Shown: positions 3,854 to 55,696 of the stretch, one piece after another | Position numbering within the stretch: position 1 is the first letter of the stretch | How the letters are laid out: each line of letters starts with the position of its first letter | Source: Octopus vulgaris | Taxonomy: Eukaryota | Direction of reading: 5' to 3' | Length of the DNA: 64,000 nucleotides | NCBI GenBank assembly: GCA_951406725.2 | Contig: OX597819.1 | Location: 8,494,001-8,558,000 of the forward strand | The notes under the pieces: generated by a model | Told to the model about the DNA's origin: nothing | Seen by the model: only the letters and a program-made list of their open reading frames with translations | The model's database searches: none | Translations under genes and position numbers: made by a program

Positions 3854-4347
3854 TCTTTATATTTGAAAATGACGTTGTGTGTTGTCTGTCTCCTACGATT
3901 TAGATTCCTAACTACTCCCACATTTTGCGGTGCAGTTTAACCAAAACCGGGTATCTTATAGTCGTGATTCATATCGAGCCCTTCTGGGTATAGTCTACGA
4001 TGAGTCTACGATTTAAAAAGAAATTTACCATCATTTTTTTCCATTTTAATGCATTTTTTCGCTATTATATAAGGGAATTAACTCTCTAAAAATGTCTACG
4101 TTGAGTCAACGATTTAAAAAAAATTTACCATAATTTTTTTCCATTTTAATGCATTTTTCGCTATTATATAAGGGAAATAACTCTCTAAAAATGTCTACGA
4201 TGAGTCAACGATTTAAAAAAAAAATTACCATCATTTTTTTTTTCAATTTTTAATGCATTTTTTTGCTATTTTTTGGCTATAACTCTCTAAAATGCTTATA
4301 TAGTTATTTCCCTTACAAACCCGAGCAACGCCGGGCGATACTGCTAA
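3854..4347 (+). mobile_element. Non-autonomous Helitron with internal ~100-bp tandem repeat
   Basis: 5' A|TC start (atctttatat) followed by ttgtgtgttgtctgtc. 3' hairpin cccgagcaacgccggg about 8 nt before CTAA (degenerate CTRR). Three ~100-bp units start at 3993, 4094 and 4193. Confidence 0.7.
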
Positions 4348-7000: not shown

Positions 7001-7186
7001 GCGCAGGAGTGGCTGTGTGGTAAGTAGCTTGTCTACCAACCGCAAGGTTCCAGGTTCAGTCCCACTGCGTGGCACCTTGGGTAAGTGTCTTCTACTATAG
7101 CCTCGGGCCGACCAAGGCCTTGTGAGTGGATTTGGTAGACGGAAACTGAAAGAAGCTCGTCGTATATATGTATATATATATATATG

Positions 7187-7228
<42 letters not shown>

Positions 7229-7457
7229 TGTGTGTGTTTGTGTGTCTGTGTTTGTCCCCTAGCATTGCTTGACAACCGATGCTGGTGTGTTTATGTCCCC
7301 GTCACCTAGCGGTTCGGCAAAAGAGACCGACAGAATGAGTACTGGGCTTACAAAAGAATAAGTCCCGGGGTCGAGTTGCTCGATTAAAGGCGGTGCTCGA
7401 GCATGGCCGCAGTCAAATGACTGAAACAAGTAAAAGAGTAAAAGAGTAAAGAGTAAA
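7001..7457 (+). mobile_element. tRNA-derived SINE family A, full length, with internal (TA)n(TG)n
   Basis: Head gcgcaggagtggctgtgtggtaag...ggttcagtccc, CORE-like ccttgggtaagtgtctt, tail ...gactgaaacaagt(aaaagagt)n. More than 10 near-identical copies in the window. Confidence 0.9.
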
Positions 7458-9674: not shown

Positions 9675-10263
9675 CTTTTTCTATTTCTATTCCTGAGTGC
9701 TATACTAATACATTTGTTTGTCTGTACTCCACCTGCCTTCGTCTTTTGTTTATTTTCGTAAACTTTACCTTTATATATATATATGCATACATACAAACAT
9801 ACATACATGTACTGCCTAAATACCAATCTTGAGAAATTAGGATTCTCAAAACCAGAAAGGAGAAAGCTAATTCGAAGGCTACAGATCTAATCCATCACTG
9901 GAACTGTACAACTCTGTAAAACTTTCCAGCCATTTATTATTTAAACATATATGAGCATGTCTAGATATGCAATTATATGCATGAGAATACATACATAAAA
10001 CAAAGCATACAAATCTGCATATATACATACGTACATACATACAAAAAACACTGTTGTTGAAGCTGTAATTCCAATGAAGGAGCTTTGGATCTAGGTTAGA
10101 AACCAGCTCTTTCACTATTGGCAAGAAATCTTAAAATAAAAGTGAACATACATACATACATACATACATACATACATACATACATACCGACCTACATACA
10201 TACATACATACATACATACATACATACATACATACATACATACATACATACATACATACATAC

Positions 10264-10670
10264 ATGAAAGAATGGAGTTGAACGACGAATTAACAAAATT
10301 CCTTTATTTTCGACATATGTTTCGAAGGCTGCATATTCCTAATTGCGAAGTCATCTAAAAGTTTTTTTGTGCATCTTGATGTTGACATAATTTCCTTGCT
10401 TTTCCTGATGAGAAAGCGGCATAATATACTCCTTATTCCTTCGCAATTAGGAATATGCAGCCTTCGAAACATATGTCGAAAATAAAGGAATTTTGTTAAT
10501 TCGTCGTTCAACTCCATTCTTTCATATATTTATATTTAAAAAAAAAAACATACAAATTTCCACACGAAAGCACGTAACTTCATACGTGTTTTCTCTGATG
10601 TGAATTTGCTAACCAGGTATCGGTTAACCGAATTATCCATAACAAGATAATTCATTCAACTACTCAAATA
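10264..10670 (+). mobile_element. Hammerhead-bearing inverted-repeat element, family H2 (PLE pLTR-like), flanked by (TACA)n
   Basis: 87-bp inverted arms at 10264-10350 and 10439-10525, apparently perfect. The 3' segment tcggttaaccgaatt...gataattcattca recurs at about 46775-46825. Confidence 0.75.
10400..10482 (+). ncRNA. Type I hammerhead ribozyme (intact core)
   Basis: Stem I ttttc/gaaaa; CUGAUGA at 10405-10411; long stem II (gaaagcggcata / tatgcagccttc) enclosing an internal hairpin; GAAA at 10466-10469; stem III ACA-UA-UGU (palindrome ACAUAUGU); GUC cleavage predicted after 10477. Confidence 0.85.
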
Positions 10671-11111
10671 TACATACATACATACATACATACATACATA
10701 CATACATACATACATACATACATACATACATACATACATACATACATACATACATACATAGCAGCCCTCTGGATACGAATGTGGTTTAAGAAATACAAGA
10801 GAAAGAGAAGATCTGTGAACCAGTGGTAAGGAGTTTGCAGTACCCAAGATACACTTTCAGCTTCATATCTATTATTATTGAAGCAACAGGATCCATACCA
10901 GCCCACCCGGCACAAAATGGAGCTAAGTTGAGATCTTAGGGAGAGAAGGCAAATCCTTAATTCATATGTTACAAATGATCACGATACCTGGGACTATAAA
11001 AATCTGCAAGACCTTCTTAAGATTCAAAGCATGATGGTTAGAACAAGATGCTAACAGGTAGCTAGCCGGTCACAAATTACTCTAAATTGAAAAGGGAAAA
11101 AGAACATACTC

Positions 11112-11485
11112 TCACTTTTACTCTTTTACTTGTTTCAGTCATTTGACTGCGGCCATGCTGGAGCACCGCCTTTAGTCGAGCAAATCGACCCCGGGACTTA
11201 TTCTTTGTAAGCCCAGTACTTATTCTATCGGTCTCTTTTTCAGAACCGCTAAGTAACGGGGACGTAAACACACCAGCATCGGTTGTCAAGCAATGCTAGG
11301 GCGACAAACACAGACACACAAACACACACATATATATACATATACATATATACGACAGGCTTCTTTCGGTTTCTGTCTACCAAATCCACTCACAAGGCTT
11401 TGGTCGGCCCGGGGCTATAGCAGAAGACACTTGCCCTAGGTGCCACGCAGTGGGACTGAACCCGGAACCATGTGGCTGGTTAGTA
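11112..11485 (-). mobile_element. SINE family A
   Basis: Reverse complement of 7001-7457; extreme 5' end lost. Confidence 0.85.
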
Positions 11486-12303
11486 AAATTTTTACAGCTC
11501 CAGTGATGGTCTGGATCTGCATGTGTGAATGTGCGTGTGTCTGTGTATGTGTGCCTTCTTGTTTGTCCTCCACTACCGCTCCTTTAGGTCTCCCTAACTT
11601 TTTGATGGTTCCTTTAATGTTGGCTCCTTTAGGTCTCCCTAATTTATTGATTCAATAATAAGAGAACGATAAAATAAGTACCAGGCTTAGGAAAAAATAA
11701 GTATTAGAGTGAATTTGTTCGACTAAAACCCTCCGCGGTGGTGCCTCAGCATGGCTGCTGTTAAAACGACTGAAATAAGTAAAAGATAAATGATAAAGAT
11801 ATACCTATACGTATGTATGTATGTATGTATGTATGTATGTATGTATGTATGTATTTATGTATGTATGCATGTAATACATACACATAGGCTTACATACACA
11901 AATACACAGACAGAAACATTTTTTCAAGCATATATATTCACTTACATCATCATCACCACCAACAACAACACTACCACCACCACCACCACCACCAACACCA
12001 TCGCCAACAAAACCACCGCCACCTATCCTTGATCACAATCTAGATATGTAATGTATGAGACATAAGGCAGTCAAGCACAATATGTAATGTTTTTACTGTT
12101 CTTCCGGTAGCCAGAAATATTCGACCTAGGGCTGGTTTTCTCCTTGTCTAACAGCTTCTGACAATAGCCATATTACATTCGATTTATCGATATTTGTTAT
12201 TTTCAATTCTACTAGATTATTAGCAATTTTCATGTATGTGCGTGTTATATATGTGTGTATAGGTGTGCATCTCTGTATATACATCATCTATACATACAGG
12301 CCT

Positions 12304-18734: not shown

Positions 18735-18765
18735 GAAAGTCGGGATGCGTTTGGTCAGTTACTCA

Positions 18766-19012
18766 ATAAATGAAAAATGCATTAACTACTACAAAACATA
18801 CACGTAGGACCCTATTTCTTCATTAGTTATCGAGCCCTCCTCATTCTATGGAAATCTTGCAGGTGCCGCCGATATACGAACTTTTCAGTCTTATCGTTAA
18901 AGGAACGAAACTGAGTATTAGTATTTTCTGTCGATAACTGATGAAGAATTAAGGTCCATCTGTGTCTGGCTGACGCGTACGTTTTGTAGTATTTAATGCG
19001 TTTTTCATTTAT
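18766..19012. repeat. Diverged inverted-repeat element between microsatellites
   Basis: Arm 18766-18833 pairs with 18931-19012 (ataaatgaaaaatgcattaa...ggaccctatttcttcattagttatcga versus tcgataactgatgaagaattaaggtcc...ttaatgcgtttttcatttat). Confidence 0.65.
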
Positions 19013-21364: not shown

Positions 21365-22438
21365 CATCCTTTTATTCGTTTCAGCCCTGCGGCTGCGGAT
21401 CTGCTGGAGCTCCACCGTGGTTTTGCTTATTTCCTCAGTCTTTGGTGTGTCACATAACCACCCTTGCATGTGCCTTTGTCCCGGCTGTTGGCTCATTTGG
21501 GGTATAAGGGAGTTTGATTCCCTCATTGCCCTCGTCATGTCGGGCTTTTGCTTCTTCCGTTATTGTGGAGAAGAGGATGTCTAGTTTCTTTTTGGAGACA
21601 TCTACTTCCACCTTATGCAGATCTCATAATTTTTGTGGCAAGGCATTGAAGAGCTGCGGGCCCATGAACTCTAGGTTAGTTAGTTAGTTAATTCTTTGGC
21701 TCAAAAAGCAAAAAGCAAGGCCATGTAGGGGGACATGGACTTATGTACAGGGTGGTGTTCAGGTAAAGAGTTCAGGCCACTTGTGGTTAAGGGAGACTTT
21801 GAACCGAGCGGTCGTCGGCATCTTCACCATCTCGTCTAGCAGCTTATTCCACGGATCCGCAAACCGGACGGAGAAAGCCCCTCTCCTTCGATTGAGATGA
21901 AATCGTCGCAGATAGAGCTTTTCGGAATGACCCCGCAGCCGACGCTCTGGAGCAGGAGTGAAGAACAGCTCTTTCGAGAGGTTACACTTTCCGCGTATGA
22001 TGTTGTGAGCAAGAATGAGATCACCACGGCGTCGTCGTTTTTCTAGAGAATAAAGGTCGAGCGTCGAGGTTATTGCAGTACTGAGTCCTGAATTTAGATG
22101 GAGTGGTTGGCACCTATGGTACAATAGAATGCCGTCAATTTCTGGCATTTCTGTAATACGCAATGTCGAAATTAGGTACTAGTCCTTCAAGAATTTTCCC
22201 TATGTAGATCATTACACATCTGACCCACCTTTGTTCAAGAGAGTAAAGTTTTTGTTCAGCCTCTCCTTGTAGGTCATCCACTACACTGTTTCAGTCTTTT
22301 TAGTGTAGTGGCATTGGACTGCTTCGAGCTTCAGTGTTACTTTGGCAGCATGTGGTGACCATAACTGGAAGAAGAAAGGTTGTCCACAGGGTCAACACAG
22401 CTTCTGGGACTCTTGTTTTGAAGGACCTTAGTATCTAT
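21365..22438 (-). mobile_element. Old CR1-group LINE 3' region (ORF2 C-terminus plus 3' end), interrupted by a younger CR1 insertion
   Basis: Minus-strand remnants ILRSFKTR..., [43 protein letters not shown]|LEFMGPQLFNALP, KKLD, with frameshifts and stops. Confidence 0.75.
21679..22066 (-). mobile_element. Young 5'-truncated CR1-type LINE with (TAAC)n tail
   Basis: Uninterrupted TLDLYSLEKRRRRGDLI...RGHSEKL...FSVRFADPWNKL...FKVSLN, the CR1 ORF2 C-terminal signature. Tail gttagttagtta; aggtta at both junctions (21673-21678, 22067-22072). Confidence 0.9.
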
Positions 22439-24199: not shown

Positions 24200-24200
24200 C

Positions 24201-24443
24201 TTTACTTAAAGCAGCAGAAAATTCAACAAAACCTGTTACTCTGAGTTTCCCGTTGCCGTTCATCGGACAGTTTTTGCTAGAAATGCGGATAGAGGCAAAA
24301 ACTGTCTGATGAACGGCAACGGGAAACTCAGAGTAACAGGTTTTGTTGAATTTTCTGCTGCTTTAAATAAAGCATATTACTCTACCACTGGTATTTGAGT
24401 ACTCTTTTTCCCACCTTGTTTCACATTTATGTGTTTACTCCGG
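24201..24443 (+). mobile_element. Hammerhead-bearing inverted-repeat element, family H1, inserted in (TA)n
   Basis: 77-bp inverted arms at 24201-24277 and 24295-24371, 17-nt spacer, then a ~72-nt tail (gcatattactctaccactggt...ttactccgg). (TA)n on both sides. Homologues at 38713 and 55541. Confidence 0.85.
24302..24339 (+). ncRNA. Minimal type I hammerhead ribozyme
   Basis: Stem I ctgt/acag; CUGAUGA at 24306-24312; stem II a-cg-GCAA-cg-g (A.G at the first pair); GAAA; stem III ACUC-A-GAGU; GUA cleavage predicted after 24335. The mirror copy in the left arm has CCGAUGA. Confidence 0.75.
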
Positions 24444-24545
24444 TATATATATATATATATATATACAAGAAAGAATATATATATAATTCGCTAACCATTT
24501 AGATGGTATTTTAATAATACCATCCTATATATATATATATATATA

Positions 24546-26586: not shown

Positions 26587-27224
26587 GTACATGTAAATAT
26601 ACACGCATGCAAGCATACATTCATGTACATATAAAGAGAAAAAGTTATGCACTTATACACACAGAGAAACACACTGACAGACATTTGCACACAAAAGCGA
26701 ACGCACAAACATTAGCAAAAGAACAAACATACTTATACATAGAAATACACATGCACACACAGTCACAAGGAACACAAAAACACACATATGCATGGAAACA
26801 CTAAAACACACGTACAGACATTGACATGCACATATAAGCCGAACGGACTGCCAGAATAGGAAAGACAGCATCAACGTGCCGTGCGTGCACAGACAAACAT
26901 AAAGGCGCACATCTGCGGAGGTATAGTTACAGACAACTGGTACACGCATCAATGCACACAAAAACTTAGCATGTCTTCAAACGGTTATGGCCATACCTGA
27001 CCTAGATATCACCAACTTATAGCTAGACCCTGGCAGTATTCGGGATGCATATGCAGTATGCACACAGACACAACATACACATGTATAGCGACGAATACAG
27101 ACAGTATATCTATACTTAAAGCGTCTGTGTGTATATATACGTATGTATATATATGTATATATATATATATATATAAGGATAATATCGATATTTAAATATC
27201 GATATTATGAAGTGGCCAGCATGG

Positions 27225-27477
27225 GAAAAATACCATACAAAGGTAATAATTTTTTTACAACAAAAAATAAGGGTGTCTGAGAGACACCACCATGCAGAAA
27301 TAGCAGTCAAAACCCTGACTCTAAGAACCACGTTAAATGACACCGGAAATGACAAATGAACCACCATTTAACGTGGTTCTTAGAGTCAGGGTTTTGACTG
27401 CTATTTCAGCATGATGGTGTTTCTCAGACACCTTTATTTTTAGTTGTAAAAAAATTATTACCTTTGTATGTATTTTC
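27225..27477. repeat. Long inverted repeat (~113-bp arms, 25-bp spacer) next to (TA)n
   Basis: 27225-27339 is the reverse complement of 27365-27477 with few mismatches. The motif tgacaccggaaatgacaaatg from the spacer recurs at about 28632. Confidence 0.85.
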
Positions 27478-27478
27478 A

Positions 27479-27547
<69 letters not shown>

Positions 27548-27548
<1 letters not shown>

Positions 27549-27864
27549 GGAGTAAATGTAAGGATAACCAAGTTAAGCAAATCGATATTCAAAAAATATC
27601 AAATACATTTAATACAAAAAATGTACATATGAATACATATACAAATATCCGACTTTTACAGAGTGGAAATAATATTAGGAATTAAGGGTGTTGAGTGGGA
27701 GCTTTATGAGTCCTACAAAACACCTTTAATCCCGGATATTATTTCCATTCTGCGTAAGTCGGACATCTCGTATGTATACATATGTATGTTTTTTGTATTA
27801 GATGTATTTGATATTTTTTCTCTATATCGAATTACTTAACTTGCTTGTCCTTACAGTTACTCTT
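27548..27864. repeat. ~315-bp imperfect palindrome (foldback/MITE-like)
   Basis: gagtaaatgtaaggataaccaagttaag...aatatcaaatacat...ccgactt...ggaaataatat...attaagggtgtt is mirrored by aacacctttaat...atattatttcc...aagtcgg...atgtatttgatatt...cttaacttg...ccttacagttactc; centre near 27705. Confidence 0.8.
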
Positions 27865-28325: not shown

Positions 28326-28383
<58 letters not shown>

Positions 28384-28425
28384 TAAAAAATGGAGTTAAC
28401 GCAGGTGTAATCAAATATTTTTACT

Positions 28426-28505
28426 TTCGACACATGTTTCGAAAAATCCACTGATACTATTCAAAAGAATAAATGGTATAAACAATGCAATCTTCTCCTC
28501 AGGAA
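28426..28505 (-). ncRNA. Type I hammerhead ribozyme, H2-related family, in a ~180-bp element (28381-28560) between (TA)n arrays
   Basis: Minus strand: ttc-CUGAGGA-gaagatt...gatttttc-GAAA-CAUGUG-UC-gaa. Stem III ACA-UG-UGU, GUC site; stem I only about 3 bp. Downstream context resembles the 10264 element. Confidence 0.65.
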
Positions 28506-28557
28506 CTATTTATTTATTTTTTCCGTGTTAATTGTTAACAAGGTAAAAATACCATCC

Positions 28558-28619
<62 letters not shown>

Positions 28620-38712: not shown

Positions 38713-38930
38713 CTTTATTCACAAAAAGCAGCAGAAAATTCAACAAAACCTGTTACTCTGAGTTTCACGTTCCCGTTCGTCAGACAGTTTTTGCTAGAAC
38801 GGGAACGTGAAACTCAGAGTAACAGGTTTTGTTGAATTTTCTGCTGCTCTTGAATAAAGCATATTACTCTACCACTGGTATTTGAGTATTCTTTTTTCCA
38901 CCTTGTTTCACATTTATGTGTTTACTCCTG
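38713..38930 (+). mobile_element. Hammerhead-bearing inverted-repeat element, family H1, in (TA)n
   Basis: Same arm and tail as the 24201 copy. The forward arm is 5'-truncated at gaacgggaacgtgaaac (38797). Confidence 0.85.
38750..38787 (-). ncRNA. Minimal type I hammerhead ribozyme (fully canonical)
   Basis: Minus strand: ctgt-CUGACGA-ACG-ggaa-CGU-GAAA-CUC-A-GAG-UA-acag. All core nucleotides and three stems present. Confidence 0.85.
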
Positions 38931-46635: not shown

Positions 46636-46685
<50 letters not shown>

Positions 46686-47090
46686 GAAAGAATGGAGTCG
46701 AACGAAGATGTTAACAAAATTCCTTTACTCTCGACATATGTTTCGAAGACAGCATTTTTTCATTCCAAAGGTTTCGGTTAAACGAATTTTCCATGCTGAC
46801 GATAACATAGGATAATTCATTCACCTACTTATATATATATATACTTATGCGCGAGTATGTATGTATTTATGTGTGTATGTATGTGTGTGTATGTGTGTGT
46901 ATCTTTGTGTTTGTCCCCCCCACCACCGCTTGACAACCGGTGTTGGTGTGTTTATGTCACCGTAACATATCGGGTCGGCAAAAATGATCGATAGAATAAG
47001 TACTAGCGATTGATTCGTTCGAGTAAAAATTCTTCAACGTAGTGCCCAGCTTAAATGACTGAAACAAGTTTTGACTGAAACAAGTAAAAA
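46503..47090 (+). mobile_element. Diverged SINE family A split at its internal (TA)n by an H2 element
   Basis: 5' half at 46503-46635 and 3' half at about 46900-47090, with the H2 fragment between. Confidence 0.7.
46680..46830. mobile_element. H2-family fragment (inverted arm with 3' half of hammerhead, joined to 3' end segment)
   Basis: atgaaagaatggagtcgaacga...aacaaaattcctttactctcgacatatgtttcgaag matches 10264-10330; tcggttaaacgaatt...gataattcattca matches 10620-10660. Confidence 0.75.
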
Positions 47091-50635: not shown

Positions 50636-51184
50636 ATCCAGTACCAGGCAGTGGCTCTCATTGCTTCTGATCTTAACTGATTGGAAGTGTTATCATGTAC
50701 ATTGTTTTGTCTTGGTATAAAAGATGGGCTACAGCAAATATTCTGCTCAATACCACAGATTTGCTTGTCAGTTGTTTGACCTTAACCAGTTGAACATGTC
50801 CCTTAGTGGCTGACGATATGTGCATCTCTGATCACGAGCAGAAGTAGTGGAGGGGAGCATCATAGCCATGTGTTGAGAGGGATTCTTTGGGGTTTGAATA
50901 ATTCACCTCTGGAAACATGGGTGTTTCATTCAACATCCTTAAACAACTCTTATCCAGGGACCTTTTGAGCGGGATGGGCTACTCAACCTGAAGAAAATTC
51001 TAACTGGGCCCCAACTGCAAGGTCATGTGCTGTTTATCTTGATATGAGATCACCATGTCGCGCACATATGGTTATGATGCATGTGCCTGGTGTACCCTTA
51101 TCAGACGGGTAGTCATGATGGGTATATTGGGCTTCGTATATTTTACCCCAGTGCCACTTTGATGGCATGAACTGCTCTCTCACT

Positions 51185-51534: not shown

Positions 51535-51980
51535 GAAGGGGACATTACAAGGACAGTTCACAATCTGAGGGTCGGATGTTACATAAAGAAAGGAGAGAAT
51601 GGTGAAATGAGATTCAAAGTATACATAGTATAGAAAATATGTAAGGCAGTCCTCCTGATACAAAAGAACCTCCAACTAGAGCCCTTTAACGAACTCCTCA
51701 GATCCAGGATCACTCTGACCAACCAAGGGCACAAGCCCTCACCCAAATGTTGTACTTCACTCTAGAGGCGCATGATTAGAGTACGTCCATTCAACTTAAC
51801 CATTTTTGTCATAGTCTCCCACCTTTTAGCAAATTCCCTTCCCTCTCCACTTTGCTTTCCAAGTAGAACTCAAAAGAGCTGATGAGGGCTTAACCGAAAA
51901 GGAAGAAGCTTTCCTTCAGTCCTTTCAACCTTGTTCACCACACAACCTCTTTCGCTATAACCACTAGACAGAAAAAAAAA
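51535..51980 (-). mobile_element. Degenerate LINE 3' end, probably L1/Tx1 group
   Basis: Minus strand FFCLVVIAKEVVW*TRLKGLKE..FLFG*ALISSFEFYLESKVERE resembles the AKxxIWxxR C-terminal block of L1/Tx1 ORF2. Confidence 0.5.
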
Positions 51981-52750: not shown

Positions 52751-53175
52751 CTCTTTTTCTGTTTTTTTCTTTTTTTTACTTGTTTCAGTCATTTGACTGC
52801 GGCCATGCTGAAGCACCGCCTTTTAGTCGAGCAAATCGACCCCGGGACTTATTCTTTGTAAGCCCAGTACTTATTCTATCGGTCTCTTTTGCCGAACCGC
52901 TAAGTGACGGGGACGTAAACACACCAGCATCGGTTGTCAAGCAATGCTAGGGGGGACAAACACAGACACAAACACATACACACACATATATATATATATA
53001 TATACATATATACGACAGGCTTCTTTCAGTTTCCGTCTACCAAATCCACTCACAAGGCATTGGTCGGCCCGGGGCTATAGCAGAAGACACTTGCCCAAGA
53101 TGCCACGCAGTGGGACTGGACCCGGAACCATGTGGTTGGTTAGCAAGCTACTTACCACACAGCCACTCCTGCGCC
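52751..53175 (-). mobile_element. SINE family A, full length
   Basis: Near-perfect reverse complement of 30317/43349. Confidence 0.9.
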
Positions 53176-53785
53176 TGTAGAAATCACATTAAACTGTCGA
53201 TTACATAACGTTAATTATAAGAGCAGATGTTTTGTAGTAAGAGCTACGGATGGGTAGTAAGTTCCCAGTAAGTGCCGAGTCTGCGATACAGAAGGCAGAT
53301 ATCCAGTGAAATCATCCAGATGTGATGCTGGTGTGAAAGGTGTCTCACTGTTTGGAGATAGAGAAGCCCAACCAGTGAGCCAAAATAGTCAAATCGTTCA
53401 CTTGCTAGAAATAATGCTCTTATCTTTCCCCTCCTTGTTTAAAAGTAAGGTAGGATAGTCACGGTTGGATGGTTGTGACCATTAGTCTTCTCAATCAAGG
53501 TAGAATTAAACAACAAAAGCAAGATGAGGATAAAGTGTTTTGCTGGTGAACCAAACAACCTATCAAGGAGGCAGACCTCTCTCTCTCACTCTCTCTCTCT
53601 CTCTCTCTTTCTCCTCCTCCTCCACTCCTCCTCCGCCTCCTCCTTTTTCTCTCCTTTGTCGTCTTTTAGTGTCGCTTCTACATTATTTCTGATTCTCTAT
53701 CTCTCTTCGATTTCTACCTCTGCATCTTCCATTTTGTATCCCTCTAACCTTTTTACAATATTAATGCATTTTTTTTCTGCATCTG

Positions 53786-55540: not shown

Positions 55541-55542
<2 letters not shown>

Positions 55543-55696
55543 GGAGTAAACACATAAATGTGAAACAAGGTGGAAAAAAGAGTACTCAAATACCAGTGCT
55601 AGAGTAATATGCTTTATTTAAAGCAGCAGAAAATTCAACAAAACGTGAAACTCAGAGTAACAGGTTTTGTTGAATTTTCTGCTGCTTTAAATAAAG
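55541..55696 (-). mobile_element. Family H1 element, opposite orientation, both arms truncated (partial hammerhead only)
   Basis: Tail ccggagtaaacacataaatg...gtaatatg; arms 55612-55644 and 55664-55696; gtgaaactcagagtaacag retained; (TA)n both sides. Confidence 0.85.

Follow-up and report, generated by a model that had tools for sequence, protein, structure and literature searches.

A hammerhead-bearing fold-back insertion in an octopus microsatellite, most likely a doubly truncated Penelope-like element

The locus described here lies in a 64,000-nucleotide stretch of Octopus vulgaris DNA (assembly GCA_951406725.2, contig OX597819.1, positions 8,494,001 to 8,558,000; "the window" in what follows). 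It is best explained as a fold-back insertion of a high-copy hammerhead repeat, H2, in an (ACAT)n microsatellite, and with good confidence we regard it as most likely a doubly truncated Penelope-like element (PLE), whose inverted arm likely arose during insertion. The order of parts is a microsatellite, an inverted 5'-truncated copy, a sense copy, a tail present on one side only, and again a microsatellite, (ACAT)30 on the left and (ATAC)23 on the right having the same orientation:

10146-10265, no strand: (ACAT)n microsatellite, 30 copies, left part of the likely target array
10264-10350, minus strand: inverted 5'-truncated copy of the element 3' end, 87 nt, with the 3' half of the hammerhead and its flank and without the CUGAUGA box
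10351-10525, plus strand: sense 5'-truncated pLTR-like fragment (BLAST and alignment), with end site A (10525) as its limit and as the starting point of the mirror arm
10400-10482, plus strand: type I hammerhead motif (descriptor scan), predicted cut 3' of C10477
10526-10669, plus strand: tail, a one-sided 3' extension of 144 nt with three hairpins, reaching end site B
10670-10760, no strand: (ATAC)n microsatellite, 23 copies, right part of the target array, oriented as the left part

The arm at 10264-10350 is the exact reverse complement of 10439-10525 (87/87) with a spacer of 88 nt, just as the original prediction had it in claiming an upstream 87-bp arm exactly antisense to the 3' half of the ribozyme and its downstream flank. 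Together, the arm and the ribozyme region fold with an energy of -157.7 kcal/mol (z -24.8; 0/200 shuffles equally stable), and the tail is also more stable than any of its 200 shuffles (z -5.71). A plus-strand ORF start was sought in 10351-10669, and all three plus frames contain stops. The surrounding window is AT-rich, with simple repeats making up about 30% of it (after masking), short dispersed repeats and no tidy gene. The commonest short repeat in it, present in more than 10 copies (e.g. 7001-7428, 11131-11486 and 52778-53178), is a two-part sequence split by a microsatellite, presumably an octopus SINE. The window also contains a tandem repeat at 3993-4270 (99-bp unit, 2.7 copies, 89% matches) and, at 21759-22178 on the minus strand, a 139-residue open frame, which we take to be the C-terminal end of a LINE reverse-transcriptase protein.

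The motif at 10400-10482 has the core boxes CUGANGA, GAAA and UH in order around three helices, as a type I hammerhead does. The descriptor scan places CUGAUGA at 10405-10411, GAAA at 10466-10469 and UC, preceded by a 6-nt insert, at 10476-10477, with a stem I of 5 bp (10400-10404/10478-10482). A match as strict as that of H2 occurred in one of 100 block-wise dinucleotide shuffles of the window, and the scan found five hammerhead loci in the window, compared to a mean of 0.14 in 100 shuffles. Two weaker type I descriptor matches lie at 51879-51913 (+) and 50810-50925 (+). Within and around the motif, the following elements can be distinguished:

10412-10465, plus strand: stem II domain, 54 nt, folding into a 12-bp helix (2 mismatches), a bulge and an apical 5-bp hairpin at 10436-10453
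10469-10476, plus strand: stem III, the self-complementary 8-mer ACAUAUGU, with a self-duplex of -7.0 kcal/mol, suited to a dimeric stem III
10378-10502, plus strand: extension of stem I beyond an internal loop, in which 10378-10397 is predicted, by folding only, to pair with 10485-10502

The descriptor scan bears out the earlier claim of a hammerhead whose stem II domain measures about 54 nt; the fold of this domain has z -1.89 (9/200 shuffles equally stable). The label "canonical", however, was too strong: stem III consists of 2 bp and a 4-nt loop within the 8-nt palindrome, and a scan of the window with Rfam gave no match, to a hammerhead family or otherwise, at the gathering score. At E<=10 none of the 15 Rfam matches was a hammerhead, and they corresponded to miRNA and sRNA families, driven by microsatellites or hairpins. 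The Rfam miss is probably explained by the long stem II. A second, permuted hammerhead in the tail was rejected by eye, its CUGA box being without A9 and stem I. The exact H2 pattern had no matches in metagenome contigs and none in viral contigs. A long-stem-II pattern gave 18 metagenome and 3 viral loci, which we discarded: all 21 have a GC content of 43-67%, are without BLAST similarity to H2, and have a stem I of 0-2 bp by the rule applied here. Hammerhead core boxes are present in the metagenome and viral contig groups L003, L007-L010 and L017, and L004, L006, L011, L012 and L019-L021; the L003 and L004 groups, with a partly branched stem II region of 42-46 nt and a stem I of 2 bp, could be hammerheads of the phage type in which stem II is unusual.

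Part of 10351-10670 is present in 20 of the 24 listed sequencing runs, which come from 10 studies and carry four organism labels. Four runs were mapped to this interval at 80% likeness, the junction 10350/10351 lying at its edge, outside the coverage; they gave 2573, 1793, 524 and 121 contigs, with 30/30 bins covered in each. Contigs bridge 10525/10526, hence the tail at 10526-10669 is part of the element. Since contigs of other copies run upstream past 10351, one of them by 589 nt, the H2 copy is 5'-truncated. Two strand-switch joints, each in a single contig, connect 10483 with 10557 and 10364 with 10541; if these are head-to-head joins, the corresponding arms would measure about 43 and 162 nt. 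The runs consist of contigs only and carry no information on ends, strand or level, and the summed contig depth, which at 10351-10361 drops 15- to 100-fold below its value at 10505-10515 in all four runs, is not a copy number. No run that contains the interval is listed as RNA; run X9 may be RNA. Dips of the depth were rejected as element boundaries, because the H2 copy differs there from most copies.

This difference in depth, together with the observation that only short H2 copies are seen in the window and with the argument that animal retrozymes derive from pLTRs (bioRxiv 10.64898/2026.07.22.740005), would agree with H2 being a non-autonomous retrozyme-like or SINE-like element of about 350 nt that borrows a PLE enzyme, instead of truncated ends of an autonomous PLE. 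We consider this unlikely, given the contigs that extend past the 5' end of H2 and given that no tandem array of the H2 unit appears in the window among the matches listed (150 of 217 tandem-repeat rows). Metazoan non-LTR retrozymes, which like H2 are non-coding repeats with a type I hammerhead, consist of tandem units each with a ribozyme, an arrangement that is absent from the window, whereas the H2 copies here are single and inverted. Even if H2 were such an element, it would have inserted, and acquired its arm, in the same way.

None of the 35 variable positions listed for the mapped contigs falls in the hammerhead core, which is weak evidence when taken alone (P 0.16-0.24). Most of the stem variants keep or repair pairs, although their phase is not visible. 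The variant shares at 10400 and 10482 are 29/26% and 25/24% in two runs, where the matched values fit a swap of U-A to C-G (again with phase not visible), and 31/19% and 36/24% in the other two. Variants at 10415 and 10418 repair both stem II mismatches of the H2 copy, the one at 10480 makes a wobble pair, and the one at 10473 keeps the dimer pairing through G-U. The variant at 10416 (share 8-29%) does the opposite and breaks a stem II pair.

Two relatives of H2, one of them in two joined parts, are found in the window:

28381-28560, minus strand: distant relative with a complete hammerhead (CUGAGGA, 55-nt stem II domain), located between (TA)n tracts, without a mirror arm
46684-46771, minus strand: inverted 3' end, 88 nt, without the CUGANGA box, the stem II strand of which resembles a loose end of other copies (run X1, 10462)
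46769-46830, plus strand: last part of the tail, joined to the 46684 arm via a shared AGG

In BLAST, H2 matches 28366-28443 (76%) and 46671-46835 (arm 85-88%, tail 73%), and the last 57 nt of the H2 tail are common to 46769-46830. Both relatives named in the original prediction (28381-28560 and 46680-46830) are therefore real, but the architecture is not common to them, and only one of the three in-window H2 copies has both the arm and the whole ribozyme. The 28381 copy is identical to H2 at 97 of 175 positions and keeps 12/12 core bases, with N7 changed; its stem II is predicted by folding to have the same shape despite 27/54 identity, and all six of its 5' core bases are kept, versus 45 of 105 neighbours (P ~0.006). 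This persistence of the core and of the stem pairing in a copy that is only 55% identical is difficult to reconcile with H2 being a MITE or a fold-back DNA transposon with an incidental hammerhead match. Such an element would account for the small size, the long inverted repeats and the simple-repeat target, yet the inverted repeats of H2 are not terminal, as 144 nt lie outside them on one side, and the inner breakpoints of the fold-backs vary; we give this explanation almost no credence.

The H2 locus is not the only fold-back in the window. The short-range inverted matches number 12, namely seven single fold-back elements, one 30-bp palindrome and four opposed copies of dispersed repeats, and our survey took in the seven single elements. 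In each of the seven, one arm adjoins a microsatellite and an unpaired extension lies beyond the other, measuring 144 nt in H2, 71-73 nt in H1, and about 51 and 31 nt in two others. The arms have 0/87, 2/78, 1/66, 4/46, 5/113, 24/154 and 7/82 mismatches per aligned columns, a range that, judging from the sequences, suggests plain decay. Four junctions could be read by eye against a sister copy and share 3, 3, 3 and 1 nt. At H2 the complete ribozyme belongs to the tailed copy and at 38713 to the arm; at 55541 and 46684 neither part contains it whole. Three of the fold-backs (27176-27480, 27550-27862 and 18735-19012) lie in microsatellites, have one-sided extensions and no hammerhead by the scan, and are unrelated to H1 or H2 where compared; the element at 27227 has a 30-bp perfect palindrome in its extension.

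The H1 fold-backs are located at 24200-24445, 38713-38930 and 55541-55696, and their one-sided tail measures 71-73 nt. By eye, the layout of stem I and stem III in the H1 hammerhead is that of Hydra-2_aMil, and its stem II insert nearly equals the loop of Penelope-2_NV (both in PMC8557442 file S2); from these sequence likenesses, H1 may be a Hydra-clade element. The view that H2 is unrelated to H1 outside the core was upheld, the best local score of 17 being reached by 192 of 300 shuffles.

A perfect match between arms invites the suspicion of an artefact of assembly or library preparation, or of homogenisation in polishing, particularly as PLE inverted structures are known to trouble assemblies (PMC8557442) and no listed contig from the sequencing runs spans the whole H2 locus. 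We find this very improbable: the H2 arm starts at the same base as that of the independent 46684 copy, the six other fold-backs carry mismatched arms, and strand-switch joints of the family are seen in independent DNA contigs.

The arm is not a constant feature of the copies: it may be missing, and where present it differs in length and in where it lies relative to the ribozyme. Therefore it is most likely a by-product of insertion rather than a control device. The two H2 arms in the window, of 87 and 88 nt, both stop at one alignment column in the apical hairpin of stem II, suggesting that the breakpoints are not simply random, which counts against a plain by-product. The simplest reading of this shared end is a stall point, although two cases cannot settle the matter. 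A self-priming hairpin is an unlikely source, because the spacer comprises 88 nt of the sense element and not a short loop. The tail may also differ from that of its relatives: in the long tail hairpin at 10553-10607, loose ends of other copies (10572-10594) show a longer inner part, and the H2 copy looks like a deletion variant there, which suggests that most copies have a longer hairpin. The long structured tail and the shared end of the two arms are mildly unusual features of H2.

In other respects the anatomy of H2 agrees with that of a PLE, and we think a PLE origin likely. H2 combines a hammerhead with a short palindromic stem III near the 3' end, an adjacent inverted 5'-truncated copy in head-to-head arrangement, insertion in a microsatellite, and dispersed, 5'-truncated copies. 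PLE insertions are 5'-truncated, often have an inverted 5'-truncated copy at the 5' end, and are biased towards (TA)n (PMC8557442); head-to-head is their commonest arrangement, and microhomology joins occur (PMC3846280). With the endonuclease-bearing PLEs (Penelope/Poseidon, Neptune and Hydra) H2 shares the type I hammerhead near the 3' end, the short palindromic stem III and the G-C pair that closes stem II (PMC4209133), as well as the head-to-head inverted 5'-truncated copy, the one-sided tail and the microsatellite target (PMC8557442, PMC3846280). It differs in the tail of 144 nt, compared to the 30-40 bp usual in PLEs, where it is often found at one end only (PMC8557442), and in the 54-nt stem II domain, in place of which animal PLEs have helices of 6-8 bp closed by short loops. 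A long stem II of about 54 nt (1 + 9-bp stem + 35-nt loop + 9 nt) is tabulated for the spike moss PLE-X1_sMoe, where it is flagged as deviating from canonical (PMC8557442 file S2). However, that element is from a plant, lacks an endonuclease and inserts in 28S rDNA, and the likeness is one of stem II length alone.

The parent of H2 was sought in the window and in the literature. Among the 93 window ORFs of at least 110 aa, inspection by eye found no reverse transcriptase (RT) or GIY-YIG frame beside any copy. Hence, of the proposal that H2 is a PLE-derived lineage separate from H1, the derivation agrees with the anatomy and the literature, whereas no RT-endonuclease partner frame was seen in the window. 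No hammerhead tabulated in PMC8557442 file S2 corresponds to H2, which by eye is unlike the 3' ends of the Naiad_Obim, Naiad_Ovul and Naiad_Omin consensus sequences in file S5 of that paper; as candidate parents, Naiad and Hydra-1_Obim gave no match in the portion of these data consulted. Word searches for H2 made alongside this comparison were negative save for two unrelated places, and the words "hammerhead" and "ribozyme" are both absent from the main text of PMC13282606. In the literature searched we found no paper describing the H2 family, and Repbase or Dfam may already catalogue it. Many unrelated hammerhead families per genome have been reported (PMC4209133, PMC6765202).

We propose the following scenario for the formation of the locus. 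The endonuclease of the element would cut both strands of the microsatellite, and on either side reverse transcription would be primed, with end site A (10525) as one start and end site B (~10669) as the other. Both cDNAs would stop early, at 87 and 319 nt, and would be joined head to head, often via a few shared bases, leaving the mirror arm and the one-sided tail. A precedent is PAc, the Poseidon element of the green anole, the purified protein of which cuts and extends both target strands and initiates at two positions, one at either end of the tail; these start sites are 30-40 nt apart (PMC11167929). The hammerhead would be inherited from the pseudo-LTR of the parent and is predicted to be active in dimeric form or when assisted by a protein. 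PLE hammerheads are known for a palindromic stem III, cleavage as dimers and low activity (PMC4209133, PMC6765202), and the ribozyme of the PLE studied in PMC11167929 needed protein and was dispensable for insertion. Since PLE hammerheads with a palindromic stem III have been reported as inactive or weak as monomers, the lack of cleavage in a monomer would not refute the motif. Even without the arm, the active fold of the H2 monomer lies 6.1-7.9 kcal/mol above the ensemble (tertiary contacts ignored), the competitor being mainly a UUCGA/UCGAA hairpin.

The proposed pairing of the arm with the ribozyme in a read-through transcript agrees with the folding, given the stability of the fold-back and the penalty of 69.9 kcal/mol that arm pairing imposes on the hammerhead fold (tertiary contacts ignored). 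The further idea of a switch does not follow from it. In the model of an evolved antisense switch, the ribozyme would be silenced in read-through transcripts and would cleave in those initiated within the element; the loss of the hammerhead fold upon pairing, the nearly equal length of the two H2 arms and the perfect match of the arms at 10264 agree with it. Nonetheless, we judge it highly improbable. The paired state wins by about 70 kcal/mol, and since transcription would reach the arm before the ribozyme, a read-through RNA would be inactive from its synthesis onwards, while the distance of the arm-free monomer from its active fold makes the on state doubtful. Moreover, the arm varies among copies and accompanies the whole ribozyme in just the one in-window copy, older fold-backs lose arm complementarity, and fold-backs of the same kind exist in three elements where the scan found no hammerhead. 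Neither conservation of the arm with the ribozyme across copies nor two reachable states, as expected of an antisense switch, was found. According to the folding model, the arm is most likely a permanent block of the ribozyme, a dead end and no switch: in RNA begun upstream of it, the ribozyme would never become active, and such a transcript would form a long perfect hairpin.

Tentatively, and with confidence well below even, we suggest that H2 represents an undescribed, recently active PLE family in which the two RT start sites are separated by about 145-170 nt, with an RNA element of three hairpins between them. One target strand would always receive the short end and the opposite strand the long end, and the long stem II would contain a stall point. 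If this were true, asymmetric insertion from two primers would be recorded genome-wide in the fold-back scars, and these would supply large numbers of short perfect RNA hairpins as substrates for siRNA production or A-to-I editing.

The odd-looking feature of the locus, the arm, is a described by-product of PLE insertion, which makes the locus for the most part an unremarkable one. Three features deserve inspection across the genome: the length and structure of the tail, the common end of the arms, and the presence of a long stem II in an element from an animal. The H2 ribozyme was missed by Rfam and its stem II is beyond the reach of short-stem descriptors, hence such PLE hammerheads are probably undercounted. 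How PLEs make inverted structures has been named as an open task (PMC8557442), and short fold-back scars with two defined ends should be handy for testing it. If transcribed, these scars would yield long perfect hairpins. The rearranged Penelope copies of Drosophila, which also have long inverted repeats, give rise to dsRNA, and siRNAs map to their inverted regions (PMC3681739); those fold-backs are known by their siRNAs, whereas that of H2 is known here from the DNA sequence alone.
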